From Phycisphaerae bacterium RAS1 (GTDB lineage Bacteria; Planctomycetota; Phycisphaerae; UBA1845; Fen-1342), in assembly GCA_007859745.1 (NCBI GenBank), contig SMLU01000002.1, positions 52,942-116,941 on the forward strand: 64,000 bases of DNA, in the 5' to 3' direction. Of the stretch, positions 2,959 through 62,765 are shown one piece after another. Below the pieces are notes generated by a model, which saw only the letters and a program-made list of their open reading frames with translations, was not told where the DNA came from and searched no databases. Position 1 is the first letter of the stretch; each line of letters starts with the position of its first letter. The position numbers and the translations under genes are program-made.

Positions 2959-3539
2959 AACGCGCGACCGGCCTTTTATCGCTCATGCTGACGGCCACGG
3001 CACTTCTGACCGGCGGCTGCGGCGACAACCAGGCCGCGGAAGCCGCCAAGACGGCCGCCGCCGCCGCGAAACTGGATCTGAAAATCGCCCAGGCCACGCC
3101 TGAAGAGGCGGTGCGAACGCTCTTCGAGCTGGTTCGAGTCGACCTGGCCGCCGCCGCCAGGCAGGACCGGCCGGCCCAGAAAGTGATCTCCGGCACGCTG
3201 GAGCGCCTGGCGTCCCGCGAGGACATTCACCGTCGCGTGCGGAACATCGCGCGGCTCAGCGGCAAGCCGGCGGACGAGTTCTTTGACAAGGTCATCGGGC
3301 GCTGGAGCGCGGTGCTCGCGCCGTACTACGAAAAGGCCGACCTGGCCGCCATGCGCGTGCTTTCCACGCGAGACGACGGCGGGTATGTCCGCATTCGAAT
3401 CGCCTCGGCTGACCCGCAGGGCCGACCGGCCGGGCTGATGGTGGAGTGCAGCAACGACAGGGGGGCCTGGAAAATCGCCGGCGTCTATTTTGACTCGCCC
3501 GGCGCAGCGTCACAGCCGGCGAGTTCGTCGGCGCCGTGA
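2955..3539 (+). CDS. Lipoprotein, hypothetical
   Basis: GTG at 2955 overlaps the metG stop by 4 nt. Signal peptide plus lipobox LLTGGC. C-terminal part of ORF 1749-3539. Confidence 0.6.
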   Translation: MKRATGLLSLMLTATALLTGGCGDNQAAEAAKTAAAAAKLDLKIAQATPEEAVRTLFELVRVDLAAAARQDRPAQKVISGTLERLASREDIHRRVRNIARLSGKPADEFFDKVIGRWSAVLAPYYEKADLAAMRVLSTRDDGGYVRIRIASADPQGRPAGLMVECSNDRGAWKIAGVYFDSPGAASQPASSSAP

Positions 3540-3567
3540 AACCGCGCGGCGGCATGGCGGACGTCTC

Positions 3568-4971
3568 ATGCAGCTTCCGGTTCTCACCGACACCATCGTC
3601 GCGGTTTCGAGCGAATGGACCGCATCCCCGCTGGCGATCATCCGGCTAAGCGGGCCGCGGGCGCTTGAGCTGGTCGAATCCGTCGCCCCTCTTGGCCGAT
3701 CCGAAGGCCGCCGTCTTTCCGAATCCGCCGCGCCAAGCGGCGGGTCGACGTCCACTCGCGCACATCCTGCAGCGTGGCGACGCGCGTCGCTCCGCGTCGA
3801 GAATCAGCCGGCGGCAAAGCGCGATTCTCACGTTCCTTGCGATGTATTCACCTTCGTCGCCCCGCGCAGCTACACCGGGCAGGATCTGGTCGAACTGCAC
3901 ACGATTGGCTGCTTGCCGCTGGTTCGCACAATCGCGGACCAACTCGCGGAGCGGGGGGCGCGACGGGCACTTCCGGGAGAATTCACAGCCCGCGCGGTCC
4001 TGGCCGGGAAAATCCGCCCCGAGCAGGTGGAGACGATTCTCGGGCTGATTCAGGCGGATGACGCGGCTGCGGCGCGGGCGGCGCGGCGCGGGGCGGGCTC
4101 GACGGCTGCGGCGGTGCGGCAGCGCGTCGCCGAGCGCCTCAGCGACGTCCTGGCGCGAGTCGAGGCCGGGATCGACTTTGTGGACGAAGAGGACGTGCGT
4201 TTCATCACGGACGAGGAACTTGCGGCGGAGATCGCTGCGGCGCTGACGGAACTGGATGGGCTGGACCCGCAGGATGTCGCTGATCAAGCCGCGCTGCGTC
4301 CGCACGTGGCGCTGGCGGGTCTGCCGAACGCCGGCAAGAGCACGCTCTACAACGCCCTGGTCGGCGCGGAGCGCGCCATCGTCTCGCCCGTGATCGGCAC
4401 GACGCGCGACGTGATCAGCGCCGAGCTGGTCATCAACGGAGTCCGCCTGATCCTGCAGGACACCGCCGGATTGCACGGCAGCCCGGGCGAGCTTGAGCTC
4501 GCGGCGCACATTGCGGCCGAACGTGCCGCCGACTCGGCGGAGCTGGTGCTGTGGGCGCACGAGGCGCAGGCGGCTTGGTCCTCCGGCGAGCTCGAAGCAC
4601 TTCGGCGGGTCTCGAGCTCGAAGATCGTCGTATTGACGAAGGCGGACCGCGCGGCCCCGTCGTGCGACGCTTCGGACGGTTACGCTCGACGGTTCCTGAT
4701 CGTCAGCGCCGTCAGCGGAAGTGGCATGTCGGAGTTGCGAGACGCGATCGCTTCCGAATTGGCGGTCGAATCGCGGGAGCGCTCGGGTCCGACTTCTGTG
4801 ATCGACGCGGAGGCACGCGCCGCGCTGCGGCGCGCGGCGTCTGCGACGGGCTTGGAAGTCGTTGCAATGGAGCTCCGTGAATCAGTCGAACGACTTCGCG
4901 GTATAAGCGGCGTTGGGTTGGTTGACGATATTCTCGGACGGATTTTTGGGCGGTTTTGCATCGGCAAGTAG
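3568..4971 (+). CDS. mnmE: tRNA modification GTPase MnmE (TrmE), carrying a ~26-aa in-frame insertion derived from a family-A repeat
   Basis: N-terminal domain DTIVAVSS...RLSGP, G-domain GLPNAGKSTL, DTAG, TKAD, and the C-terminal CIGK tetrapeptide. Start MQLPVL at 3568. Confidence 0.9.
   Translation: MQLPVLTDTIVAVSSEWTASPLAIIRLSGPRALELVESVAPLGRSEGRRLSESAAPSGGSTSTRAHPAAWRRASLRVENQPAAKRDSHVPCDVFTFVAPRSYTGQDLVELHTIGCLPLVRTIADQLAERGARRALPGEFTARAVLAGKIRPEQVETILGLIQADDAAAARAARRGAGSTAAAVRQRVAERLSDVLARVEAGIDFVDEEDVRFITDEELAAEIAAALTELDGLDPQDVADQAALRPHVALAGLPNAGKSTLYNALVGAERAIVSPVIGTTRDVISAELVINGVRLILQDTAGLHGSPGELELAAHIAAERAADSAELVLWAHEAQAAWSSGELEALRRVSSSKIVVLTKADRAAPSCDASDGYARRFLIVSAVSGSGMSELRDAIASELAVESRERSGPTSVIDAEARAALRRAASATGLEVVAMELRESVERLRGISGVGLVDDILGRIFGRFCIGK
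3713..3790. repeat. Family-A palindromic repeat lying in frame inside mnmE: intact left arm, degenerate right arm
   Basis: TTTCCGAATCCGCCGCGCCAAGCGGCGGGTCGACG matches the family-A arm. It translates SESAAPSGGSTS...PAAWRRA, the same peptide signature that intergenic A copies give (SEPAAPSGG...PAAWRGGFG). Confidence 0.7.
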
Positions 4972-5193
4972 AAAGCGGTTCCGACGGCCGCGGAGAGGGC
5001 GTTGAAAATGTGTTGAAAAGTCGCGCCGCTCAAGCGGGCATGCACAACGTAACTAATTGATAGTAAACATCTTATGTCGCTATCGCCTCTCATTGGGTAG
5101 AAATACTGACGGTGGATTGATGATGGCGCGCGTCGTGCTAGCCGATAAACGATGTAAGCCCCGGAAATTTGAAAACTTCCGGCTATTATCCTG

Positions 5194-5222
5194 TTGACGT
5201 TTGATAAACGGCCGAATAATAA
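5194..5222 (+). promoter_or_regulatory. Sigma70-like promoter: TTGACG, 17 nt spacer, TAATAA
   Basis: Read directly from the AT-rich island. The nearby palindrome CCGGAAATTTGAAAACTTCCGG (5161-5182) could be an operator. Confidence 0.4.
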
Positions 5223-17617: not shown

Positions 17618-17732
17618 CTTTCCGAGCCGCGACCGTGAGGGAGCGGAGACTTGAAGAACCGCTTGCTTACGCGCGCGGCTCGGATCTTGCCGCCGCGCGC
17701 GGCTCTGATCTTGCCGCCGCGCGCGGCTCCGA
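17618..17732. repeat. Family-D palindromic repeat (TCCGAGCCGCGACCGTGAGGGAGCGG ... CCGCTTGCTTACGCGCGCGGCTCGGA)
   Basis: Inverted arms with a variable spacer and tandem GATCTTGCCGCCGCGCGCGGCTC sub-repeats. Confidence 0.75.
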
Positions 17733-19027: not shown

Positions 19028-19105
19028 GGTGTGAACTCCTGCGGGTTTTCCGCATGCTAGCGCGCGGCATGCGCAGCCGCAAGCAAACCGGACGCCGCGG
19101 CGGTC

Positions 19106-19206
19106 TTTCCGAACCCGCCGCGCCAAGCGGCGGGTTGACGATCGCGCGCGAGCGGCGCCTCGCAGGCCGGGGAGGTCGACTCGCCGCCTGGCGAGGCGGG
19201 TTCGGA
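19106..19206. repeat. Family-A palindromic repeat (TTCCGAACCCGCCGCGCCAAGCGGCGGGTTGACG ... inverted arm ... GGGTTCGGA)
   Basis: Full two-arm copy, intergenic. Confidence 0.85.
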
Positions 19207-19268
19207 GATGTCTGCCCGCCGAGCCTCCCAATGATTGGTCACACGCCGGTCGCGATATAATCGGGCGT

Positions 19269-20583: not shown

Positions 20584-23500
20584 TCACTGCGCCGCCGCGT
20601 CCATCGCCAGCTTCTCCGCTTCACGCAGGAATTGCTGCCAGAGCTCGTCACGGGCAAACCAGGGCTGCCCCATCAGCTCGCGCAGATGAACGAGCTCGCG
20701 GGCCGCCTCCTCCGACCGGCCGAGCTTCTGCAAGCTCATCGCCGCGAACGCGACGTCGGCCGGGTGCTCGCCGTTGCGGGCGCGGGACGCGGCCAGCGTT
20801 TCGAGCGCCTCGGCGTATCGCCCGCAGCGGAACCGGGCGATGCCGAGCGTGTTCAGATACGAGCCGACGCGCGGCGACATGTCGCACGCCGTCTCCGCCA
20901 TGCGCAGCGCACGGCGGTATTCCGCCGCCGGGCGGCCGGCCGTCTTGACCAGCGTCCATGCGGCGTCGTTGAGTTGCTGCGGATTGTTGCCGCGCGCCTG
21001 GACGATTTCGATCGCCGTTGCGCGAAGCGCGCTCTCCAAGTCTTTCCGCTCGCGCAGCCTCCCGATGACGTCATCCGCGAAGACCGCGGCGGCGAATTCG
21101 GCATCGACCCGCTGGTGCGCCGCGGCGACGTGCGCCCGGCGGGCGGCGACGTCCGGCAGCGGCTCAGCCGTTTCCCAGACACGAATAACCCCGCTGCTGC
21201 CACCCGCCACGATGCGCGGCGCGATCGCCGGATTCGCGTGCGGCGTGGAGGAGCTCCGGCTCGCGGGCGCCTGTGCGGCGGCTGCCGGCGGCGCCGCTCC
21301 CACCGCGACGGCGAGCGCCGCTTCACGCGATTCGCGGAGTTCCTGCAACTCTTCGCCGGTAACCGTGTCCCACAGCTTGACGGCGCCGTCGTCTCCACCG
21401 GAAACGAGCCGCTCGCCGTCGGGCAGGCAGGCGAGACTGCGAACCGCCTGCCGATGACCGCGCAGAACGAGCGTCTGATCTGAGCGGCCCAGCCGCCAGA
21501 TGCGGATGGTCGTATCGTCGGCCCCTGACGCGAGCGATCGCCCATCGGGCATGAATGTGACGCACGTCACGCGTCCCTCGTGGCCCGCGAGCGTCGCCAG
21601 GCAGCGGCCCGACGCGACCGCCCAGACGCGAACCGTCCGATCCGCCGAGCAGGACGCAAGCTGCTTGCCATCCGGGCTGAAGGCGAGCGCCAGGACGTCG
21701 TCGCTGTGGCCCGACAAGGCGAGAATGTCCGCACCGCTGTGCACATCCCAGAGATGCACGCGGTCGTCGAACCCGCCGCTCGCGACCACGCGCCCCTGCG
21801 GGCTGACCGCCAAAGCGAACACGTGCTCCTCATCCGCCTTCCACGTGCGAAGTGATTCGAGCGTCGCGGCATTCCAGACGGCGGCGCGCCCATCGTCGCC
21901 GACGGAAACCAGCGAGGCGCCGTCAGGCGTGAACGCGACGCCGGTCACCGTCCACTCGTGCCCGCGGCCGGTGCGCAGCTCCTGTCCGGTCGCCGCGTCC
22001 CAGAGCTTCACCGTGAAATCGCGTCCGCCCGAAGCGACGAATCGCCCATCCGGGCTGACGGCCAGCGCGTGGACGGCGCTGTGATGCCCGGCCAGCGCAA
22101 GTACATCCGCCGCGGCGGCGGCATCCCAGACGCGCAGCGTGTTGTCGCGCCCGCCGCTGGCAATGCTCGCGCCGCCGGGGCTGAACGCGACGCTGTCGAT
22201 CGGCGCCGCGTGCCCGCGCAGGGTCACGGCGCAGGCGCCCGAACCGGCGTCCCAGACCCGCAGCGCGCGGTCCTCTCCGCCACTGGCAACGCGCCGGCCG
22301 TCCGGGCTCCAAGCCACGCCGTGCACCGCCGAGCCGTGAGTGAGGATCACGACCGGAATCGCGCCATTCTCGGCGGAAACCGGCCGGGCCGCGCTGCCCC
22401 AGATTCGGATGGTGCCGTCGCTTCCGCCGCTGGCGAGCCGCCGGCCCTCCGGATCAAACGCGACCGACCAGGCGCGGCCCTCGTGCCCGCGCAGCACCGC
22501 CGTCTCGGCGCCATGCGCCGCGTCCCAGAGGCGCACGGTGCCGTCCTCGCCGGCGGTCGCGATCGTCGCGCCGTCGGGCGAATACGCGACACCATCCACC
22601 GCGCCCTCATGTCCGTAGAGCGTTGTCGGCTCGTCGCCGGTGGCGATGTGCCAGATTCGCAGCGTACCGTCGTGTCCCACGGACGCGAGTTGCCCGCCGT
22701 CTGAACGCCAGGCCAGCCCGGCGACGTGCGACCAGTGTCCTTCGAGCGTCCGCAGCGGCTCGCCTGTGGCAGCGTCCCAGAGACGAATGACGCGATCCTG
22801 GCCGCCGCTCGCAAGTGTCTTGCCATCCGGGCTGAACTCGGCGCACATCACCGGCCGGTCATGGTCCTTCAGCACCGCAGACGCGGCGAACTCGCCGGCT
22901 TCATTCTGCGTCCACAGGCGCACGGTTCCGTCGAAGCCGGCCGACGCGATCTGCTTGCCGCCGCTGCGCCACGCCACTGCCGAAACGAAGTGGTCATGGC
23001 CGCGCAACGTCATCCGGCTGCGATCCGCCAGCCAGTCGAGCCGCTGCCACTCCCAGCCGCGCAGCTCCTGCGGACAGCCGATCAGCAGGTCGCGCACCAG
23101 CGCCACGTCTCCGTCGTCGAGCTTTCCGCCGGCCAGCGCCACGCGCGTGCCATACAGCCGCCGCGCGACCAGCCGCTCGCGCTCCTCGGCCGCCTCGCGC
23201 GCCGCGACGGCCTCGGCCCGCTCGCGCGCCTGCAGCTTGGCCGCCGCCTGCTGATACAGAAACGTCATCGCCACCCCGAACCCCACGCCGGCCACCAGCA
23301 TGACGGCGGCGATGCTGGCGGCGGCCCAGTAGCGGCGAATCCCCTTGCGCAGCATGTACCAGCCGCTGTCGCGCTTGGCCTCGATCGGCTGGCCCGCAAG
23401 ATAGCGGCGAATGTCGTTGGCCAATTCGCCGGCCGACTGGTAGCGCCGCGGCGGTTCCTTGCTCAGGCACTTGAGGACGATCGTCTCGACTTCGTCGTCA

Positions 23501-24327: not shown

Positions 24328-24448
24328 GGCGTACTCCGAGTGTCACAAAAGGAATAGTATCGCCCACCGCGCGCGATTGCATCGCGCGGGGAGTGATGGT
24401 GATGCGCCGGGTGTGACCGGAGATTGTCGCGACTCAGCGGGCGAGTCT

Positions 24449-24549
24449 GTCCGAACCCGCCGCGCCAAGCGGCGGGTTGACGACCGTAGGTCTTTTGGCG
24501 CCACACAGGCCGGGGACGTCACCCCGCCGCTTGGCGCGGCGGGTTCGGA
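24449..24549. repeat. Family-A palindromic repeat
   Basis: Full two-arm copy between the STK start and the ispB end. Confidence 0.85.
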
Positions 24550-24585
24550 AATACGGCCGCGTCGGAAGAACGGCCCGCCGTCCGG

Positions 24586-28140: not shown

Positions 28141-28266
28141 GAACCGCTGGCTTACGCGCGCGGCTCGGATCACGCGGCTCGGATCTCGCGGGTGGGGCCA
28201 ACATCCGAGCCGCGGCCGTGAGGGAGCGGTCCGGGAGAAGACCGCTTGCTTACGCGCGCGGCTCGG
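28141..28266. repeat. Family-D palindromic repeat
   Basis: Overlaps the 3' end of larA; it supplies the last codons ...RKSEPRA. Confidence 0.75.
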
Positions 28267-29566
28267 ACTTGCGTGCGGCGACGCAGACGTTTCCCGCGTC
28301 ATGGACGCGGACCGCGGACGCGCGCGGCGAATCGCCCGCCGCGGCCAGCGCGGCCTCGATGTCTGGACATAACGTCATTCCGCACAGTGCGGCGGCGTCC
28401 TGCGGAACATGGCGGCTGACGAGAAAAACCCGCACGCCGCGGCCATGCGCGTCGGTCAGATGCCGCAGTTTCACCGCCTTATGATCGCCGAGCCGATAAC
28501 CGTTGGCCGCGACGGTTTGACGTGCGGCGGCGTAGGTGGACGCGGATCGCAGCAGCGCCAGGAAACCGTCGGGCCCGACGCCTTCGCGGCACTCGGCGTC
28601 GAGAATAATGGCGCCGCCATCTCGAACGGCGAGATGGTTGTTTTTCAGCGCCTTGTCGGCCTGATACAGGTTTCGGCTCAGCGGCGGCGCGACGCACAAG
28701 TGCAGGATATCCGCCGGATTCGGAATCTCGTGCGAGAACGTGCGCCGCGCGACGGGCGCGAGCCGATGGAGCGCTTCAAGCGGATCCCCGACGGCACAGG
28801 CGACAAGTGCATCTTGAGCGATGACCTCGTTGATCGCGACCAGCGATTTGCCGGCCGACCGAAGGCTTTCGACGACATGTCGAACGCCGTCATAAACCGG
28901 GTTGCCGTCGAGCCGGAAGAGATCGGAGGCCGGATCGAGCGCGCCGGCGTGGTTCTTCTCGATATCGGCGCGGGCCATGACGCCGATGGTGGCGGTCTTG
29001 TGTGCCCCGGTCAGCCCGGCGAAGTAATGCGGCTCGACGCTGCCGATTGCCAGCAGGCAGCGCGCCTCCGCGACCAGCGGGTGCAGCCGGACGCCGCCAA
29101 ACTCGCGCAGATCGACGGCGTCGCAGTCGTGCCAGTCGATTTGTGCGATCGGCAAGCCGCAGTCGGCGAAGGTGGCGTGCTCGAACGCGGCCCGCTCGGG
29201 CGCGGGGAACTTGTGCGTACCGGTTGCGACAATCGCACGGCAGGGGGGCAGCGCTTGCGCCGCACGTCGGGCGGCTTCGGACAGCGCGAGTAGCGCGGCG
29301 CGGGTCAGCGTGGCGCGGTGAGGATCGTTGACCAGCAGGACCAGCGCGTGTGCGGTGTGTGCGGCGGTCTCAAGAAGCTCCCGCAGTCCGGCGTGGTGCG
29401 AGATTTCGGCGCCCAGCACGTCCGCCGCCAGTCCGGCGTTGCGCGGCGTGATCGGCCCGAATTCCTGCCAGGCGGCCATTGCCGATTCTCCGCGCATCAG
29501 AGCATGTGTTCGCGCGAATCCGGCGATATTGAAGTGCTGTTGGCGGAGATTGTCGAGGCGCGGCAT
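28250..29566 (-). CDS. LarA-like protein (DUF2088 / nickel-pincer lactate racemase family)
   Basis: About 438 aa; resembles LarA-type nickel-pincer racemases (DUF2088) and has conserved His residues, but the assignment is low-confidence. No larB, larC or larE nearby. Confidence 0.55.
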   Translation of the reverse strand: MPRLDNLRQQHFNIAGFARTHALMRGESAMAAWQEFGPITPRNAGLAADVLGAEISHHAGLRELLETAAHTAHALVLLVNDPHRATLTRAALLALSEAARRAAQALPPCRAIVATGTHKFPAPERAAFEHATFADCGLPIAQIDWHDCDAVDLREFGGVRLHPLVAEARCLLAIGSVEPHYFAGLTGAHKTATIGVMARADIEKNHAGALDPASDLFRLDGNPVYDGVRHVVESLRSAGKSLVAINEVIAQDALVACAVGDPLEALHRLAPVARRTFSHEIPNPADILHLCVAPPLSRNLYQADKALKNNHLAVRDGGAIILDAECREGVGPDGFLALLRSASTYAAARQTVAANGYRLGDHKAVKLRHLTDAHGRGVRVFLVSRHVPQDAAALCGMTLCPDIEAALAAAGDSPRASAVRVHDAGNVCVAARKSEPRA

Positions 29567-30375: not shown

Positions 30376-30929
30376 TCTTTCATCTCCTATGCACTTCCGG
30401 ACCGGCCACGTTTCAGCGTCCCGCCGGTCGGCGGCAGTACGAGAAGAGCATTCAAAATGAATGCGCTCCAGTCAAACCCGAGTGGCGCGGGTTCGGCCGG
30501 TTCCCATAAGAGGCGTGACCTGGAAAACTGGCTATCCGGGTAAACTGTGCTATACTATTGGGAATGCTGCAAACGCCGAATGTCGAGCCGCCACCAGCGG
30601 CTCGGCAACGGGGAACCCAACGCGGCGCACGGCTTCACGGCGTGTGTCGCAGGGGCTAATCCGGCCGAAGCCGGACGCTTACTCAGCGAAGCGAGCCCGT
30701 CAGCTAACCCCGCAGGCAAACGCTGGAGTCTCGCTTTGCGCGTTTTCATCAAACGACGATAGCCGCCTGCGCCTCGCGAGCCGGGCTTCCGTTGCATCTT
30801 CGCGCGAGCGCCGCGCCGACTTTTTCATTGGTCGGCCGACGTCGCACGAAATGGCGTAGAAGTTTCGGTGATCGAGGTCTGCGGCCGCATTCGGCGTTTG
30901 CTGGGATCGAGGCATGCGGGAGAAGAGCC

Positions 30930-33215: not shown

Positions 33216-33289
33216 ATGCGCGGCGAACGCCAATGGCGAAAGGCCAAAGTCGGTGGCTAATACTCCGACGCTATGTGCGTCAGCCCTGG

Positions 33290-33500
33290 AAGGGCGAAAG
33301 AATACAGCCCCGGGCGAAAGCGCGGGGACGTCATTGAAGCAAGACCGCGCAGCCCCGGAGGGGCGAAAGAGAGGGGCAGCGTGTGCGGCACCGTGCCGCA
33401 TCGCAAGCAGAGCTTTCGCCCCTCCGGGGCTTGTGGTCTCTTGCGCGGAGCACCCCGGGCTGACGCCCGGGGCTTTATTCTGCCGCCCCTACGGGGCTGA
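33290..33500. repeat. Family-E nested palindromes rich in the motif GGGCGAAAG
   Basis: CCGGAGGGGCGAAAGAGAGGGGCAGCGTGTGCGGCACCGTGCCGCATCGCAAGCAGAGCTTTCGCCCCTCCGG is a perfect 15-bp inverted repeat enclosing an inner hairpin. Confidence 0.6.
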
Positions 33501-35299: not shown

Positions 35300-35397
35300 G
35301 GGGCTTCATCATGGGGGCCACGATGCACACGGACAAGCGGAGCGCCGCTTGTCGTGGGTGTCGCCGAAGTTCTCGCCAGACGCCGCCGGCGGGGCCG

Positions 35398-35503
35398 TTT
35401 TTCCGAACCCGCCGCGCCAAGCGGCGGGTTGACGATGGTGGGCGAGCGGCGCGTCACAGCCCGGGGACGTCACCCCGCCGCTCGGCGCGGCGGGTTCGGA
35501 CAG
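35398..35503. repeat. Family-A palindromic repeat
   Basis: Full copy, intergenic. Confidence 0.85.
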
Positions 35504-35564
35504 AGAAAAGGTTGCCCGGCCTTGCCGAGCTTGCTGGTCCACCCCCCCTGGATCAGCCGCACGG

Positions 35565-37404: not shown

Positions 37405-39655
37405 CTCACCTGCCGCCGCCGCGCCGGAAACCAAGGTCACTTTCCGAACCCGCCGCGCTCACAGCCCGTTCATAAAACCCGTAGCGTCGGCCCTCTGCGG
37501 CCGACGATCCGCGAAAACCCCACGAAAATCGTCATCGGCCACAGAGGGCCGACGCTACCGTCGCCGGGTTCGGACAGACGCGAGCGCCGCGGCGGGGAAC
37601 GGCCTTGCGATTGCCGCGTTTCTGTTCGCGACGCTGGCCGTTGCGCCGCTCGGAGAGGCCGCGGCGGATGACGCCTCGCTCGCCCGCCACACCCCCGCAA
37701 ATGTCGGCCTGTTTGTCGAGCTTCGCAAGCTCGACGGCCTGCTGGTCGATTTGCTCGACGCGCAGCTCTGGCTGACGCTCGCCGATCTGGCGGGCCAGCC
37801 GGCGCGCGAGGACGAACCCGAGGAGTGGCAGCGCCGCGTTCGGCATGCCATTCAGATGGATCCGACCGAAGCGATCAAGGCGCTGTTCGCCGATCGTGTG
37901 GCGTTCGTGGGAGACGCGCCCTGGCACGCGCAGGACGCCGCCGTTCTGTGCCGCCCGCCGACCGACGTGAAAGAACTGCTGAAGCGCTGGAAGCCGGCGC
38001 CGCTGCCGTACGCCGGACGGGCGTCGGTTTATCGTTTGCCGGGCAGCGTCGGGCTGGGGCGGTTCGACGACCTGCTGATGTTCGGCGACCCGCGACCGAT
38101 CGACGGCTCGTTTCAGCAGATGCTGAACCAGGCGGATCTCGGCGGTCCGACGCTGGCGGACGATCCGGTCTACTCGCAGTTGCTGGCGCGCACGCCGCCG
38201 TCGGCTGACGGCGTTCTGTTCGCGCGTCTGCGGCCGGTCGTCCGCATCGGCGGCGCGGGAGGCAGCGCATCGCAACCGGCCACGTCGCCGGCGACGCGCG
38301 CGTCGCGGCCGCTGGATGTGCTGGCCGGCGAGCTGCCCGGCCCGCTGCGGGGCGCGTCGAACGTTCTGCTTTCTTTGCACCGCGAGGGTCCACGACTGCA
38401 TGTTTGTGCGGTGGGCGACGGGCCGCCGCGTGCCCCGCGCCCGGCCGCGCTTTACGAAATGGTGCGCGACCTGCCGGCTCGAACGCTTCTGGCGCGGGCC
38501 GCGACGGTCGATTTTCCGGCGCTCTTCGACGCAGCCCAGAAACTGCCCGAGCGCAACCCGGCTCGCCTGGCCGTTTCACTGCTCGGCAAAGCCGGCGTGC
38601 TCGAGCGGCTCGAGCCGGCGCTCGGCTCGGACACGTGCATCGCGATCGGCGTTGTTGCGCCGGAGAATCGGCTCGACGGCGCGCCGCCGGCCCCGGCCGC
38701 GGCGCTCATGATCCGCACGCGCAACGCGCGCGCCGCTCTGGCCGAATTCACGAGCATCCTCGAATCGCTCTCGGGGCTGTACAACCTGCTGGCGATCAGG
38801 AACGGCTGGACCGCGCTTGACCCGCTACGCACGATCAACGCCGGCCCGGCTGACGCGCGCATGCTGGACCTGACGCCGCTGCTGCCCGCGGCGGCCGCGG
38901 GGCTTCTGGGCCCGGTGCGAATCACGTGCCTGGTGGACAATGACGTGCTGATCATCGCGACGCACGAGGACTGGATTCGACAGATCGTCGAAGCCCGCGA
39001 AGGCCGCAGCCCGCGGCTGGCTGAAGGACTGCAACTGTCACGGCAGCGCATCGGCCCCGGCTCCGACTCGATCATCTTTGCTCAGACCGGCCCGTTCGCC
39101 GATCTGAGCGTTTTGTGGCTCGATTTCGTGGGACAGCTCGCGCCGCAGGCGCTCGGCGAGCGCTTCTGGCGCGAGCTTCAGCCTGCGGGCCGAAACGTGC
39201 GGCTCGGAATCCAGGCCACGGAATTGAGCGACGCGCGGGCGCTGCGCGTGGATAGCGTCAACGAGCTCGGCCCGGCGTCCGGCGTGCTGCGGATCGGCGA
39301 CCGGATCCTGGGCTGCAACCAGCGGCGCTTCGCTACCACGCAGCCGGTGGTTGAGTTTCAGCGCGGCCTGATCGAGCGGCCCGAGGCGCGCTTCGTCGAA
39401 CTGATCGTGCAGCGAGATGACATTTCGCTCGTTCGCCGAGTCCCGCTGCCGTTCATCGATCCGGTGCAGCTCCTGCGGCGGGCGGTCTCGATCGGCAAGG
39501 CGGCGCAGCGCGTGGTCTACCACGACGATTCCGGAGACGCCGCCGGCCCGCGCGGCTTCCTGACGATTGAGCTGCGCCGTCCGGGCGACGTGGTCTATTC
39601 GTTCGACGAGCCGACGTCGCAGCCGGCGCGCTCGGAAGACTCTGTACGCGAATAG
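37349..39655 (+). CDS. Large secreted hypothetical protein with a PDZ-like C-terminal region; start codon uncertain
   Basis: Long coding-like ORF. A signal-peptide-like segment LAIAAFLFATLAVAPLGEAAA lies just after the repeat. The only in-frame canonical start upstream is ATG 37349, which reads through the composite repeat. Confidence 0.55.
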   Translation, partial: TMSRINPPKAARTISIPSSSPAAAAPETKVTFRTRRAHSPFIKPVASALCGRRSAKTPRKSSSATEGRRYRRRVRTDASAAAGNGLAIAAFLFATLAVAPLGEAAADDASLARHTPANVGLFVELRKLDGLLVDLLDAQLWLTLADLAGQPAREDEPEEWQRRVRHAIQMDPTEAIKALFADRVAFVGDAPWHAQDAAVLCRPPTDVKELLKRWKPAPLPYAGRASVYRLPGSVGLGRFDDLLMFGDPRPIDGSFQQMLNQADLGGPTLADDPVYSQLLARTPPSADGVLFARLRPVVRIGGAGGSASQPATSPATRASRPLDVLAGELPGPLRGASNVLLSLHREGPRLHVCAVGDGPPRAPRPAALYEMVRDLPARTLLARAATVDFPALFDAAQKLPERNPARLAVSLLGKAGVLERLEPALGSDTCIAIGVVAPENRLDGAPPAPAAALMIRTRNARAALAEFTSILESLSGLYNLLAIRNGWTALDPLRTINAGPADARMLDLTPLLPAAAAGLLGPVRITCLVDNDVLIIATHEDWIRQIVEAREGRSPRLAEGLQLSRQRIGPGSDSIIFAQTGPFADLSVLWLDFVGQLAPQALGERFWRELQPAGRNVRLGIQATELSDARALRVDSVNELGPASGVLRIGDRILGCNQRRFATTQPVVEFQRGLIERPEARFVELIVQRDDISLVRRVPLPFIDPVQLLRRAVSIGKAAQRVVYHDDSGDAAGPRGFLTIELRRPGDVVYSFDEPTSQPARSEDSVRE
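37437..37580. repeat. Composite repeat: family-A termini enclosing a family-F palindrome
   Basis: Starts TTTCCGAACCCGCCGCG and ends CGCCGGGTTCGGACAGAC. The core is GTCGGCCCTCTGCGGCCGACG...CGGCCACAGAGGGCCGACG. Confidence 0.7.
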
Positions 39656-44056: not shown

Positions 44057-46174
44057 ATGACCTGCTCGTCCTGTGCCGCACTTTCGCTCTTCCTGGCCGC
44101 CTGTTTTCTGCCGGTCGCGTCATTTGCCCAATCCGCCGCCAAGCCGATCAACGTGCGCGACCTGCACGCCTTGGAGCGCATCAGCCAGATTCAGGTCTCG
44201 CCCGACGGCCAGCGCGTCTGCTTCGTCCTGCGAACCACCGACTTCGACGCCAACCGTGGGCGAACTAATCTGTGGATGTGCAACATCGACGGCAGCGTCC
44301 TGCGGCGGCTGACCACGCACCCGGAGGGCGGCGCAAGCAACCCGCGCTGGGCGGCCGACGGTGGCGCCATCTACTTCATTTCCAGCCGGGACGACAGCTC
44401 ACAGATTTGGCGGATTGCGGCGGACGGCGGCGAGGCGGAGCAGGTCACCAGGCTCCCGCTCGACGTCGAGAGCTTCACGCTCTCGCGCAACGGTAAGCTC
44501 ATGGCCCTCAACATGGCCGTCTTTCCCGACGCCTCACCGGCCGACACGAAAAAGCGGCTCGACGAGAAAAAGCAACAGAAGGCGACCGGCCAGCTTTATG
44601 ACAAGCTCTTCGTGCGGCACTGGGACGCATGGAAAGACGGCCGGCGCTCGCACATCTTCGTCCTGCCCGTGGGTGGGATGGGCGTCTCGCCCGTCCCTGC
44701 CGACAGCGTGAACGGGCGAGACGCCCGTTCCACCCTCAGCCCGGAGGCGGTCGACTTGATGAAGGGCATGGACGCCGACGCGCCGTCACGACCCTTCGGC
44801 GATGCAGACGAGTACACGTTTACGCCGGACGGAAAGGCCGTGGTTTTTGCCTGCCGCAACGTCGGCCGCGAAGAGGCCTGGTCCACGCGTTTTGATCTGC
44901 ATGTCGCGCCGGTTGATGGCGCCGCGCCGCCGAAGGTCATCACGCCGGGCAACAAGGCCACCATCACCCAGCCGGTCTTCTCGCCGGATGGCAGGACGCT
45001 CGCGTATCTGGCCATGACGCGGCCGGGATACGAGGCCGACCGCATGCGGATCGTGCTGCGAAGCTGGCCCGACGGCGAGCCCAAGTTGCTCACGGAAAAG
45101 TGGGACCGCTCGCCGCAGAAGATCGTCTGGTCGGGTGACGGCAAGACGATTTACGCGTTCGCCGACAACCTTGGCCAGCGTAGCATCTTCGCGGTTAGCG
45201 CCGCGGACGGCGCGGCGAAGGCGATGGTTGAGCAGGGCCACGCAACCGAATTGGGCGTCGCCGGGGATCGCGTCGTCTACGGGCTGAATTCGTTGAAAAG
45301 CCCCGTGCAAATCCACACGGTGGCCGCAGCCGGCGGCAGTCCGACGCAGATCACAAAGATCAACGGGGAAAAGCTCGCCGAGCTGAAGCTCGGTGAGCCG
45401 GAGCAGTTCGATTTCGTCGGCTGGAACGACGAGAAGGTCTACGGCTACATCGTCAAGCCGGTCGATTTTGACGCCGCGAAGAAGTATCCGATCGCGTTCC
45501 TGATTCACGGCGGCCCGCAGGGCTCGTTCGGCAACGACTGGCACTATCGCTGGAACCCGCAGCTTTTCGCGGCGGCGGGCTATGCAGCGGTGATGGTCGA
45601 TTTCCACGGCTCCACCGGCTACGGACAGGCGTTCACGGACGCGATCACCGGCCACTGGGGTGATCGGCCGCTCGAAGACTTGCAGAAAGGCCTGGCGGCG
45701 GCCCTGGCGAAATACCCGTGGATGAACGGCGAGAAGGTGGCGGCGCTGGGCGCCTCCTACGGCGGCTACATGATCAACTGGATCGCCGGCAACTGGCCCG
45801 ACCGCTTTCGCTGCCTGGTCTGCCACGACGGCAATCTCGACGAGCAGTTCGCCTACTTCGACACGGAGGAGTTGTGGTTCCCCGAGTGGGAGCACGGCGG
45901 GACGCCCTGGGAAAAACCGGAGAACTTTGCCAAGGCCAACCCGATCGACTTCGTGAAGAACTGGAAGACGCCGATGCTGGTGATCCACGGCGGGAAGGAC
46001 TACCGCGTGGTTTACACGCACGGCATCGCGACGTTCACGGCGCTCCAGCGGCGCGGGATTCCGAGCAAGTTCCTGTTCTTCCCGGATGAGAATCACTGGG
46101 TTTTGAAGCCGGCGAATGGGATCTTGTGGTATGACACGGTGCTGGGGTGGATGGATGAGTGGTGTAAGAAGTAG
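44057..46174 (+). CDS. S9-family serine peptidase (prolyl oligopeptidase/acylaminoacyl-peptidase type), secreted; carries an in-frame family-B repeat
   Basis: Signal peptide. Beta-propeller N-domain. Catalytic GASYGGY, with Asp and His in the C-terminal alpha/beta-hydrolase domain. Confidence 0.85.
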   Translation: MTCSSCAALSLFLAACFLPVASFAQSAAKPINVRDLHALERISQIQVSPDGQRVCFVLRTTDFDANRGRTNLWMCNIDGSVLRRLTTHPEGGASNPRWAADGGAIYFISSRDDSSQIWRIAADGGEAEQVTRLPLDVESFTLSRNGKLMALNMAVFPDASPADTKKRLDEKKQQKATGQLYDKLFVRHWDAWKDGRRSHIFVLPVGGMGVSPVPADSVNGRDARSTLSPEAVDLMKGMDADAPSRPFGDADEYTFTPDGKAVVFACRNVGREEAWSTRFDLHVAPVDGAAPPKVITPGNKATITQPVFSPDGRTLAYLAMTRPGYEADRMRIVLRSWPDGEPKLLTEKWDRSPQKIVWSGDGKTIYAFADNLGQRSIFAVSAADGAAKAMVEQGHATELGVAGDRVVYGLNSLKSPVQIHTVAAAGGSPTQITKINGEKLAELKLGEPEQFDFVGWNDEKVYGYIVKPVDFDAAKKYPIAFLIHGGPQGSFGNDWHYRWNPQLFAAAGYAAVMVDFHGSTGYGQAFTDAITGHWGDRPLEDLQKGLAAALAKYPWMNGEKVAALGASYGGYMINWIAGNWPDRFRCLVCHDGNLDEQFAYFDTEELWFPEWEHGGTPWEKPENFAKANPIDFVKNWKTPMLVIHGGKDYRVVYTHGIATFTALQRRGIPSKFLFFPDENHWVLKPANGILWYDTVLGWMDEWCKK
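44683..44749. repeat. Family-B palindromic repeat inserted in frame in the S9 peptidase gene
   Basis: GTGGGTGGGATGGGCGTCTCGCCCGTCC...GAACGGGCGAGACGCCCGTTCCACCC translates PVGGMGVSPVPADSVNGRDARSTL without breaking the frame. Confidence 0.8.
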
Positions 46175-46224: not shown

Positions 46225-46312
46225 GATCCGAGCCGCGACCGCGAGGGAGCGGTTCTTCGTCGATCGGAGCGCCGTGCTTTCAGAACCGCGCCCTTACGGT
46301 CGCGGTTCGGAT
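46225..46312. repeat. Family-D palindromic repeat
   Basis: ATCCGAGCCGCGACCGCGAGGGAGCGG...CCGCGCCCTTACGGTCGCGGTTCGGAT. Confidence 0.75.
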
Positions 46313-48328: not shown

Positions 48329-48366
48329 CGCTAACCGGGTGTGCCTGTTTCCGGGCGGGCGGTCTT

Positions 48367-48488
48367 CTTTCCGAACCCGCCGCGCCAAGCGGCGGGGTGA
48401 GGTGCGCGCTGTGCTCGGCGTCAAGGTACGACGCGCCGCTGCGAACGCGCCCGGACGTCACCCCGCCGCTTGGCGCGGCGGGTTCGGA
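48367..48488. repeat. Family-A palindromic repeat
   Basis: Full copy with a longer spacer. Confidence 0.85.
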
Positions 48489-48586
48489 CAAGCCGGCGTG
48501 GTTGTCGGAGTTTCCGGGCACACGCAGCTAACGCGACCGTCCGTTCCCGCTTGACTTCCTGCGACAATATGTTACCATTTAGTCAC

Positions 48587-49452: not shown

Positions 49453-49517
49453 TTCCGAGCCGCGACCGTGAGGGAGCGGAGCCTGAAGAACCGCTTGCTT
49501 ACGCGCGCGGCTCGGAT
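49453..49517. repeat. Family-D palindromic repeat
   Basis: TTCCGAGCCGCGACCGTGAGGGAGCGG..CCGCTTGCTTACGCGCGCGGCTCGGA. Confidence 0.75.
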
Positions 49518-52161: not shown

Positions 52162-52225
52162 TTTCAGAGCCGCGACCGTGAGAGAGCGGTTCTTCGAGCC
52201 TTTCCGAGCCGCGACCGTGAGAGAG
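52162..52225. repeat. Family-D half-arms, two tandem copies, interrupted by an IS insertion
   Basis: CAGAGCCGCGACCGTGAGAGAGCGGTTCTTCGAGCCTTTCCGAGCCGCGACCGTGAGAGAG. Confidence 0.75.
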
Positions 52226-53700
52226 TGAGAATAAATCCCCCTTGCCGGGGATGGTACATTATTCGACATGGACACGACGATGCTGATTGCCGGAATGGAT
52301 GCCGTGATGAACGACCCAGTATCGGAATCGACGGGGCGGCGTGCGTTGGCGGAGCCGCCGCGGCTTCGGCGGCCGAATCGCGAGCAGTCGTTGCTGCTGC
52401 CGTGCTGTCTGGAGGATCTGCTGCCGGCGGATCACGCGGCGCGGGCGGTTTGGTCGGTCGTGGAGCGGCTCGATCTTTCGGCGTTCAGCGCCCCGCTCAA
52501 GGCGCGCGGCGACGAGCCGGGCCGGCCGGCGACGGATCCGCAGTTGCTGACGGCGTTGTGGCTGTACGCGACGATCGAGGGGATTGGCAGTGGGCGCGAG
52601 ATCGAGCGACGCTGCGGCTGCCAGGACGCTTTTCGCTGGCTGTGCGGCGGCGTGCCGGTGAACTATCACACGTTGAATGACTTCCGCGTCGGTCACGGGG
52701 CGGCGCTGGACGAACTGTTTTCGCAGGTGTTGGCGGTGCTGATGCACAAGCGGATCGTGAGCGTGCGTCGGATTGCGCAGGACGGAACCAAGGTGCGGGC
52801 CGACGCCGGGCGGCACACCTTCCGCCGCGAGGCGACGCTGCAGCGTCAACTGACGGAAGCCCGCGCCCATGTGGCGGCGGTCAAGGCCCAGTCGGACAAC
52901 CCTGCCGCGGATGCGCGACGGCGTGCCGCGCAGGAGCGTGCGGCCCGGGAGCGGGTCGAGCGAATCGAAGCGGCGTTGGCCGAGTTGCCGAAGATTGGCG
53001 CAGACCAGCAGCAGTCCAAGCGGCCGGACGTGCGTGCCAAAGAGCCGCGGGCCTCGACGATCGACCCGCAAGCGCGCGTCATGAAGATGCCCGACGGCGG
53101 CTACCGTCCGGCGTATAACGTACAACTGGCAACCGACGTGGAGAGCCGCGCGATTGTGGGGGTGGACGTCACCCAGGCCCGCAGCGACCACCAGCAAGCA
53201 GCGCCGCTGCGCGCCCAGGTGGAGCGGCGCAGCGGCGCGAAGGTGGTAGAGCACCTGCTCGACGGCGGCTACGTGCAGTTGGCCGAGATCGAGCGCGCCG
53301 AAGCGGCGGGCACGCGCATCTATGCGCCGCCGCAGAAGACCGGGAACGACACCGCGGGCTTTGCGCCCAAACGCTCTGACGGTCCGGGCGTGGCGGCCTG
53401 GCGCGTGCGCATGGGAACGCCGGCGGGCCAGACGATCTATAAGCAGCGAGCCTCGACCGCCGAGCCGGTCAACGCCGACTTGAAACGGTATCGCGGACTG
53501 GCGCAATGCGTCGTGCGCGGGCTGGCCAAAGTACGCTGCCAGGCCCTTTGGGCCGCCCTCGCCTACAACGTGATGCACTTCACCGCGCAGCTCGTCACCT
53601 GACCAACGGTGAGCGAATGAACCCGCCGGTGCAGCCGAAGTAAACAAGCGAATCACGAGCCGCAGACCATGCGACAAGGAAACCGACGCCGGCCAAAGGA
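52226..53700 (+). mobile_element. IS5/IS1182-like insertion sequence (boundaries approximate) inserted into a family-D repeat cluster
   Basis: Transposase ORF with candidate terminal inverted repeats TGAGAATAAAT... and ...AGTTCTCAGTCT. Flanked on both sides by CGTGAG(A/G)GAG from repeat D. Confidence 0.6.
52268..53602 (+). CDS. IS5/IS1182-family DDE transposase
   Basis: N-terminal InsH-like domain RPNREQSLLLPCCLEDLLPADHAARAV. The C-terminal DDE-region identification is weaker. Confidence 0.75.
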   Translation: MDTTMLIAGMDAVMNDPVSESTGRRALAEPPRLRRPNREQSLLLPCCLEDLLPADHAARAVWSVVERLDLSAFSAPLKARGDEPGRPATDPQLLTALWLYATIEGIGSGREIERRCGCQDAFRWLCGGVPVNYHTLNDFRVGHGAALDELFSQVLAVLMHKRIVSVRRIAQDGTKVRADAGRHTFRREATLQRQLTEARAHVAAVKAQSDNPAADARRRAAQERAARERVERIEAALAELPKIGADQQQSKRPDVRAKEPRASTIDPQARVMKMPDGGYRPAYNVQLATDVESRAIVGVDVTQARSDHQQAAPLRAQVERRSGAKVVEHLLDGGYVQLAEIERAEAAGTRIYAPPQKTGNDTAGFAPKRSDGPGVAAWRVRMGTPAGQTIYKQRASTAEPVNADLKRYRGLAQCVVRGLAKVRCQALWAALAYNVMHFTAQLVT

Positions 53701-53707
53701 AAAGTTC

Positions 53708-53893
53708 TCAGTCTCGTGAGGGAGCGGTTCTTCGAGCCTTTCCGAGCCGCGACCGTGAGGGAGCGGTTCTTCGAGCCTTTCCGAGCCGCGACCGTAAGGG
53801 AGCGGTTCCTGGCGTCTCCGCGGTTCCTGGCGTCTCCGCTGCCGTACGGTGATTGCCGGATCCGCTCCCTCACGGTTGCGGCTCGGAAGGGTC
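53708..53893. repeat. Family-D cluster: three tandem left half-arms, then spacer and right arm
   Basis: GTGAGGGAGCGGTTCTTCGAGCCTTTCCGAGCCGCGACC occurs three times, followed by CCGCTCCCTCACGGTTGCGGCTCGGA. Confidence 0.8.
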
Positions 53894-54323: not shown

Positions 54324-54389
54324 GGGTGGTACGGGCATCCTGCCGGTTCCTGACCGCGCACGGACGGGCGAGACGCCCGTCCCACCCCA
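54324..54389. repeat. Family-B palindromic repeat
   Basis: GGTGGTACGGGCATCCTGCCGGTTCC...GGACGGGCGAGACGCCCGTCCCACC. Confidence 0.8.
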
Positions 54390-59381: not shown

Positions 59382-59457
59382 GATCCGAGCCGCGACCGTA
59401 AGGGAGTGGTATTTCGACGGTCGATTGGCCACCGCTCCCTTACGGTTGCGGCTCAGA
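59382..59457. repeat. Family-D palindromic repeat
   Basis: ATCCGAGCCGCGACCGTAAGGGAGTGG...CCACCGCTCCCTTACGGTTGCGGCTCAGA. Confidence 0.8.
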
Positions 59458-59464
59458 AATTAAA

Positions 59465-62424: not shown

Positions 62425-62565
62425 GTGTACCTCCAAGTCGGCGCCGCCATACGCAGCGAACCACCGCCGAATGCTCGCGGACCGCAGGTCATTCGTCAAC
62501 GCGGTGGCGCCTTCGGGTTGTGGGTGAGCGTTGCCACGGTTCTTAGCAGATGTCGCGGGGCGGGC

Positions 62566-62672
62566 CGTTTTTCCGAACCCGCCGCGCCAAGCGGCGGGTT
62601 GACGTCCTCGACCTATGCGGCGCGGCTCGCCTACGATCGTCAACCCGCCGCTTGGCGCGGCGGGTTCAGACA
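62566..62672. repeat. Family-A palindromic repeat
   Basis: Full two-arm copy. Confidence 0.85.
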
Positions 62673-62765
62673 GACAGGCCCCGCGGACAGACAGGCCCCG
62701 CGGACAGACAGGTCCGCGGACAGACAAGCCGGCGGCACCACAAGCCCGCGGCCAGCGAAGCCGGC
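62672..62765. repeat. Imperfect tandem repeat, about 17 bp x 4-5 (GGACAGACAGGCCCCGC)
   Basis: cagacagacaggccccgcggacagacaggccccgcggacagacaggtccgcggacagacaagccggcg. Confidence 0.7.

Follow-up and report, generated by a model that had tools for sequence, protein, structure and literature searches.

Where do the additional residues in the N-terminal domain of MnmE from Phycisphaerae bacterium RAS1 come from? The gene for this tRNA modification GTPase lies in a 64,000-nucleotide (nt) stretch of contig SMLU01000002.1, referred to here as the window, and all coordinates given below are window positions. An earlier note on this DNA had proposed that about 48 residues separate the conserved LGR and VFTFVAP blocks of the protein, compared with about 22 in E. 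coli, and that the excess is encoded by the left arm of a palindromic repeat, family A, together with a decayed right arm. The analysis described here favors the insertion of one repeat arm, in frame, into a permissive loop of MnmE where it has been tolerated as a passenger, a reading to which we assign a probability of about 0.8. It is based on the identity, frame and boundaries of the arm, its place in the loop, the low confidence of the structural model there, the absence of the arm from orthologs and a second in-frame insertion found in an S9 peptidase gene.

The presence of a family-A left arm in frame in mnmE is beyond doubt (Table 1). The 33-nt core of the family, TCCGAACCCGCCGCGCCAAGCGGCGGGTTGACG, matches 3718-3750 with two mismatches, at 3724 and 3746, and at three or fewer mismatches it has 10 matches in the window against an expectation of 0.00. 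Repeat finding grouped the mnmE copy with five other left arms (family D3). A covariance model trained on 15 arms, the mnmE copy being excluded, scored 3710-3756 at 55.1 bits (E = 2e-12), and the 12 nt upstream of the core (GGCCGCCGTCTT) agree with the element-specific flank of the other family-A copies. As RNA, the 48-nt arm folds at -20.9 kcal/mol. Its length is a multiple of three and the frame used contains no stop. Most of the insert would be covered by one predicted tryptic peptide, LSESAAPSGGSTSTR (MnmE residues 50-64). No terminator-like or promoter-like sites were found within 3400-5200. The claim that a left arm lies in frame in the N-terminal domain was thus borne out by core match and covariance score, and a repeat-derived segment exists as proposed; its limits had been set at S51-L75, and were moved here to G47-S62, with residues 63-78 being native.

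The count of 48 residues between LGR and VFTFVAP in RAS1 compared with 22 in E. coli was confirmed by alignment. The spacing from RLSG to PxSYTG is 69 residues in RAS1 against a median of 47 in 112 homologs from Phycisphaerae and Planctomycetota, and the columns of residues 43-54, specific to the lineage, are occupied in 1-2% of 116 homologs. From V39 to W70 there are 32 residues in RAS1 and 16 in typical orthologs, for example LGVMLPTADARPRAGW in P0053. Removal of the 16 repeat codons leaves a V39 to W70 stretch of 16 residues, which is the modal length in orthologs for the loop joining helix 1 to strand 2. The alignment of orthologs shows no conservation of the extra segment in other MnmE proteins, conservation in distant taxa being the finding that the earlier note had expected to speak against a repeat origin. 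The repeat accounts for 16 of the 22 residues in excess of the modal length of the clade, and no right arm was detected in the rest. A small insert specific to the lineage, NQPAAK, follows strand beta-2, and its DNA (3802-3819) showed no significant likeness to family A by alignment or covariance model.

In the AlphaFold 2 (AF2) model, residues 32-39 form a helix, 40-68 a coil and 69-77 a strand. The predicted local distance difference test score (pLDDT), averaged by block over residues 41-70, is 66, 52 and 70, while the flanking elements are at 90 or above. G47-S62 is thus predicted to lie in low-confidence coil, in a solvent-exposed loop between alpha-1 and beta-2. Between the N-terminal domains of MnmE lie the dimer interface and the folate site (PMC2749940). 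The alpha-1/beta-2 loop also has inserts, unrelated in sequence and in length, in P0002, P0004, P0006/P0017, P0020, P0023/P0076, P0080, P0091, P0094 and P0111. No family-A arms were found in the mnmE loop inserts of P0076, P0111, P0017 and P0004 (loci L005-L008). As the length of this loop varies in many orthologs, tolerance of an insert there is unsurprising. The suggestion that MnmE tolerates a repeat-derived loop stands insofar as the arm sits in an intact gene, but such tolerance was to be expected.

The host gene looks functional, as judged from sequence and model, because its domains, catalytic motifs and predicted fold are all intact. ATG 3568 was taken as the start since orthologs open alike (MQLP..., MQFP...), and the database entry for RAS1 MnmE is 100% identical to the product of 3568-4971. 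Pfam matches of this identical protein comprise TrmE_N (PF10396), MnmE_helical (PF12631) and MMR_HSR1 (PF01926), the three-domain architecture of MnmE. In an alignment of 117 sequences the P-loop GLPNAGKS, DTAG and the C-terminal FCIGK are conserved, and the P-loop and C-terminal residues G251, N254, G256, K257, S258, F463, C464, G466 and K467 are invariant in all 117. For the AlphaFold model, mean pLDDT is 83.5 and the best Foldseek matches are all solved MnmE structures (3GEI, 9HIP, 3GEH and 1XZP), and phmmer against the PDB matched the protein to 3GEH with E = 1.9e-46. The gene had been called essential, which is overstated, as most E. coli backgrounds can do without mnmE. As a separate observation, the G4 motif of the RAS1 protein (residues 355-361, 4630-4650) reads TKAD; SKxD or TKxD is found in most Phycisphaerae homologs and the canonical NKxD in E. 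coli MnmE.

An alternative history is that a complete two-armed family-A element was inserted and that its right arm has since decayed within 3760-3795 or 3800-3825. [quoted passage not shown] The proposed decayed arm was evaluated by three tests and did not rise above background in any of them. Local alignment of 3751-3860 with the five real right arms gave a score of 23, which 59.5% of random window segments matched or beat. The best ungapped match to the arm core, 18/33 at 3760, was equaled in 13.9% of null windows. The covariance model, run with filters off at E <= 10, gave no minus-strand match in 3757-3860.

The stretch that had been assigned to the right arm holds native sequence instead. 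MnmE residues 63-78 (TRAHPAAWRRASLRVE) align with native ortholog sequence; WRRASLRVE aligns with the family consensus and has WRRAMLAVE as its counterpart in the nearest relative. P0011 reads TPAAW, and W is the commonest residue in its column (55/117). The model places a strand at residues 69-77 with a pLDDT of about 90. On this sequence comparison PAAW and the strand are native, and the likeness of HPAAW to QPAAW is a coincidence of frame that misled the earlier reader. Nor can a full family-A element fit: it would need at least 115 nt, or about 38 codons, and only 22 are in excess, and with lengths of 115-116 nt, which are not divisible by three, it would also break the frame. Insertion of a complete element followed by decay is thus considered unlikely.

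The nearest relative available (P0002, locus L001) shares the gene order metG-lipoprotein-mnmE with RAS1. Its identity with RAS1 is 90% in the MetG fragment and only 58% in MnmE, so mnmE appears to be evolving unusually fast. The metagenomes SRR28863569-73 include a relative with a MetG of 90% identity. In P0002 the spacing from RLSG to PxSYTG is also 69, and the loop has 36 residues (L001 1800-1915). The loop DNA resembles neither family A nor any other part of the window, and its folding is not unusual (z = +1.2).

Several points weigh against insertion of a single arm into an unexpanded loop. At the same site P0002 has a different, longer, non-repeat loop, and its mnmE locus provides no empty site. 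No MnmE closer than that of P0002 was found among 5.8 billion clusters, and no empty-site mnmE allele was seen. It is possible that an older expanded loop was later overwritten by the arm; independent expansion in the RAS1 and P0002 lineages is more economical. Single-arm insertion is the simplest history, but insertion of a doublet followed by partial excision is possible too, and REP singlets have been regarded as remnants of doublets (PMC3116915, PMC3337134).

The loop of P0002, with its spacing of 69 and 36 residues devoid of repeat likeness, might also suggest that the expansion is native to the RAS1 lineage and that the repeat likeness arose by gene conversion or patch repair, or even that family A was derived from the mnmE segment. 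Just upstream, TCCGAAGGCCGCCG (3700-3713) is similar to the sequence with which the arm itself begins, TCCGAATCCGCCG, and could provide microhomology. Nevertheless, the mnmE arm and its 12-nt flank fit the consensus, and its two private substitutions are those of a derived copy rather than a founder. The same hairpin is present in other genomes whose MnmE is without the arm, and once the arm is taken away, the loop of RAS1 MnmE is of exactly modal length. This reading is accordingly held to be very improbable.

Equally doubtful is that the insert has been co-opted, either as an mRNA hairpin of eight G+C base pairs that would tune translation or stability, or as a loop that would alter the binding of a partner such as MnmG or tRNA. 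The arm has private substitutions at two positions, C3724T (P to S) and T3746C (L to S). Both are non-synonymous and lead to serine, the hairpin has been kept, with C-G to U-G as the sole change in its stem, and RNA-level roles have been proposed for REPs (PMC3733652). Two serine-making substitutions are, however, without statistical weight and prove nothing. G47-S62 is conserved in no ortholog, the energy of the arm hairpin is ordinary for its G+C content (z = -0.9) and no terminator-like tail follows it.

Family A is an inverted-pair palindromic repeat, for which repeat finding returned six left arms (D3) and five right arms (D8) in the window. All five full elements, 115-135 nt long, consist of inverted arms round a 33-nt spacer (53 nt in one) with GACG...CGTC facing inward. 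The element at 19100-19214 folds at -82 kcal/mol (z = -6.08), a stability that none of 200 shuffles reached. The individual arms form hairpins too, in which a G+C stem of 8 bp carries the loop GCCAA. At the flanks of five family-A copies no shared direct duplication was seen, the element ends being fuzzy and the palindrome giving inverted ends trivially.

An arm pattern scan of a genome collection from which RAS1 is missing found three loci, from two other planctomycete metagenome-assembled genomes (MAGs). The covariance model found more arms and pairs in these two MAGs, and also in L007, the mnmE region of one of the two, Phycisphaerae bacterium CA_2019_TPBS_22, which has the order mnmE-RNase R-ACT as in RAS1 and no arm in mnmE. 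In 21 arms taken from four genomes, pairing extends to 95% of stem cells and three pairs have changed on both sides, for example CCCGTGC/GCACGGG; neither the loop GCCAA nor the flank TC[CA]GAAC varies. This conserved hairpin pattern points to structured DNA or RNA that may be recognized by some factor. Open reading frames (ORFs) beside the repeat in L003 and L004 were not transposase-like by eye. Two scans of metagenomes for the family-A arm returned nothing, and Rfam contains no family matching family A or family C, the repeat of the S9 peptidase case described below. A word search for further proteins with the translated doublet gave no candidates, but it also missed RAS1 MnmE, which has three words in common with the query.

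Other repeats were observed in the window as well. A third inverted-pair family (TTCCGAGCCGCGACCGTGAGGGAGCGG and its complement) occurs at 17620-17685, 28144-28268, 46226-46312, 49453-49517, 52163-52229, 53740-53888 and 59383-59458, and a fourth hairpin type at 37553 (37545-37590). Both share the family-A flank TCCGA[AG]C, and several repeat families may thus have one recognition motif in common. At 62671-62725, three to four tandem 17-nt units (GACAGACAGGCCCCGCG) adjoin the right end of a family-A element.

Table 1. Features of the mnmE locus and of the palindromic repeats in the window.
Feature	Position	Strand	Remarks
mnmE (tRNA modification GTPase MnmE)	3568..4971	+	467 aa, intact; start ATG 3568, stop ends 4971
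Single family-A repeat arm (REP unit)	3706..3753	+	48 nt = 16 codons, G47-S62 = GRRLSESAAPSGGSTS
Hairpin core of mnmE arm	3724..3744	+	stem 3724-3731, loop GCCAA 3732-3736, stem 3737-3744
Native strand beta-2	3775..3801	+	W70-E78, WRRASLRVE; region that the earlier note took for the right arm
Small lineage-specific insert	3802..3819	+	N79-K84 (NQPAAK), beta2-beta3 turn; columns occupied in 3-4% of homologs
Full family-A element	19100..19214		intergenic, upstream of probable start MAAIRP... of minus-strand gene
Full family-A element	24442..24557		between two minus-strand ORFs
Full family-A element	35394..35508		intergenic
Full family-A element	48362..48496		intergenic, longer spacer
Full family-A element	62564..62678		intergenic, upstream of lipoprotein-like gene
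Complete family-C palindromic element in S9 peptidase gene (44057-46174)	44671..44735	+	65 nt, in frame

Every repeat family of the window was checked for copies inside long frames, and a second in-frame case was found, a complete family-C palindromic element in an S9 peptidase gene. Its arms match the 27-nt core of the family with one and three mismatches (nine matches in the window against 0 expected), and the hairpin has a folding energy of -57.2 kcal/mol (z = -8.2). The element adds 21 residues (aa 208-228, MGVSPVPADSVNGRDARSTLS). The peptidase has 705 residues compared with about 683 in most homologs and 684 in P0122, which is 87% identical, and all 10 aligned homologs, P0122 included, show a clean gap of 21 residues. 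An empty site is also seen at the nucleotide level in the DNA of this 87%-identical relative (L009, L010), with flanks that match on both sides. The S9 peptidase provides direct evidence for in-frame insertion of palindromic repeats in the RAS1 lineage, and its empty site makes the interpretation of mnmE more secure. A further family-C copy, at 54334-54387, was not accepted as an intragenic one: the long stop-free frame around it is an upstream extension of an SppA-like gene that overlaps a real minus-strand gene.

At both in-frame sites the native flanks resemble the ends of the element. In mnmE, TCCGAAGGCCGCCG stands before the arm's TCCGAATCCGCCG and CCTGCAGCGTGGCG after it (3763-3787), and at the peptidase site GGGYGG is found (44660-44680). 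This likeness may represent microhomology at the insertion sites, or chance in G+C-rich DNA.

Among the known repeat systems, family A was compared with the CGTC-tagged REPs (Di Nocera, De Gregorio & Rocco 2013, PMC3733652). On the opposite strand, its unit reads CGTC-AACCCGCCGC-TTGGC-GCGGCGGGTT-CGGA. Nine of the 11 arms in the window, the mnmE copy included, end in GACG (= CGTC); one has GGTC and one (48362-48408) CCTC, a tag variant that has been described for CGTC REPs (PMC3733652). Further points of likeness are the 5-nt loop (GCCAA/TTGGC), against 4-5 nt in CGTC REPs, and the arrangement of most units as inverted dimers with tagged ends facing and spacers in the 20-100 bp range. CGTC REPs have A/T pairs at stem positions 1-2. 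The family-A stem has eight G-C and up to two A-T pairs, compared with 8-9 bp in CGTC REPs; it is extended by AA/TT to 10 bp in 'GGGTTGACG' variants, and the second A/T pair is lost in 'GGGGTGACG' variants.

The tail of family A, CGG(A) within the conserved TTCGGA/TCCGAA, differs from the usual CCA, although CCA is given for 'most' CGTC REPs only and is hence not strictly defining (PMC3733652). The CGTC end is also not conserved in the arms of the other two MAGs, where the conserved end is TC[CA]GAAC. Repeats of this type have been reported from five phyla, Planctomycetes not among them, and the Rickettsia palindromic elements (RPEs) RPE-4 and RPE-6 have been equated with them (PMC3733652). 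[quoted passage not shown] Family A broadly fits the description of CGTC-tagged REPs, and in-frame intragenic insertion is an already known type of event.

RPEs in general (PMC10969869, PMC3733652) resemble the mnmE case in that palindromic inserts lie in frame in unrelated housekeeping genes, are translated and were judged compatible with the fold. The likeness is functional, and no sequence homology is claimed. The RPE-1 type is about 150 bp long and has a conserved peptide, whereas RAS1 MnmE carries a single arm of 48 nt, and the alpha-proteobacterium that hosts RPEs is obligately intracellular and has a reduced genome, whereas RAS1 is a free-living planctomycete with 66% G+C. REPINs and their RAYT transposases (Bertels & Rainey 2011, PMC3116915, PMC3337134) offer another comparison. 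As in family A, inverted units and a spacer make one long hairpin, doublets are common and singlets exceptional, and local intergenic copy number is high. However, the GTAG 5' end of REPINs is not present in family A, whose conserved ends are TCCGAAC and CGTC, and REPINs are described as extragenic, unlike the mnmE copy. [quoted passage not shown] MITEs are 70-300 bp long with terminal inverted repeats and target-site duplications, whereas the mnmE insert is a half unit of 48 nt.

Insertion of one arm followed by tolerance would have proceeded as follows. A single arm of the mobile palindromic repeat would have entered mnmE at the length-variable, exposed loop between alpha-1 and beta-2, and the gene would stay open because the insert is 48 nt long, divisible by three and free of stops, and lies in a loop. 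The arm would then be translated as a 16-residue segment rich in Ser, Gly, Ala and Pro that is most likely disordered and would be harmless to folding, dimerization and catalysis, a tolerated passenger rather than an adaptation. Copies that landed in structured regions or broke the frame would have been purged by selection. Movement could have depended on a host enzyme that transposes the DNA hairpin, or on copying from another locus during repair. Neutrality, arrival of the single arm in one step and this mode of mobilization are what we infer from the present case.

The window contains additional features that are separate from family A. Matches to the Rfam Acido-Lenti-1 RNA were found at 33282-33327 on the minus strand (39.8 bits) and at 33453-33498 on the plus strand (55.3 bits), inverted and about 125 nt apart. 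A cyclic di-AMP riboswitch of the ydaO/yuaA type lies at 30564-30733 on the plus strand (51 bits). On the minus strand, 21370-22963 holds nine repeat copies, mostly at a spacing of 126 nt (42 codons), in a 1253-residue ORF whose predicted product looks like a beta-propeller-type repeat protein.

The phenomenon itself has been known since the work on Rickettsia, and a survey across phyla appeared in 2013; the insertion in RAS1 mnmE is genuine and is probably neutral. With it, the proteins known to carry translated palindromic repeats come to include one from a planctomycete and a tRNA-modification GTPase, and CGTC-type REP-like elements are extended to the Phycisphaerae. The loop between alpha-1 and beta-2 of the MnmE N-terminal domain is marked as a permissive site that could serve for tagging or engineering. 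For annotation, segments of this kind inflate apparent divergence and can split hidden Markov model alignments; it was precisely at this loop that phmmer broke the alignment of MnmE.

More speculatively, RAS1, and perhaps related Phycisphaerae, might have been massively colonized in frame by unrelated palindromic families, and the element-like flanks would hint at a homology- or structure-guided insertion of REPs; we put this forward as a tentative idea that is more probably wrong than right. Extrapolation from two clean cases, which belong to two families and were met among about 55 genes, would give roughly a hundred or more decorated proteins. The in-frame density would then rival that of Rickettsia or Opitutus, but in a free-living organism with a large, G+C-rich genome, and guided insertion would concern REPs without a dedicated transposase. 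Taken together, the mnmE and S9 peptidase cases suggest that variation in loop length still arises in RAS1 through the insertion of repeats.

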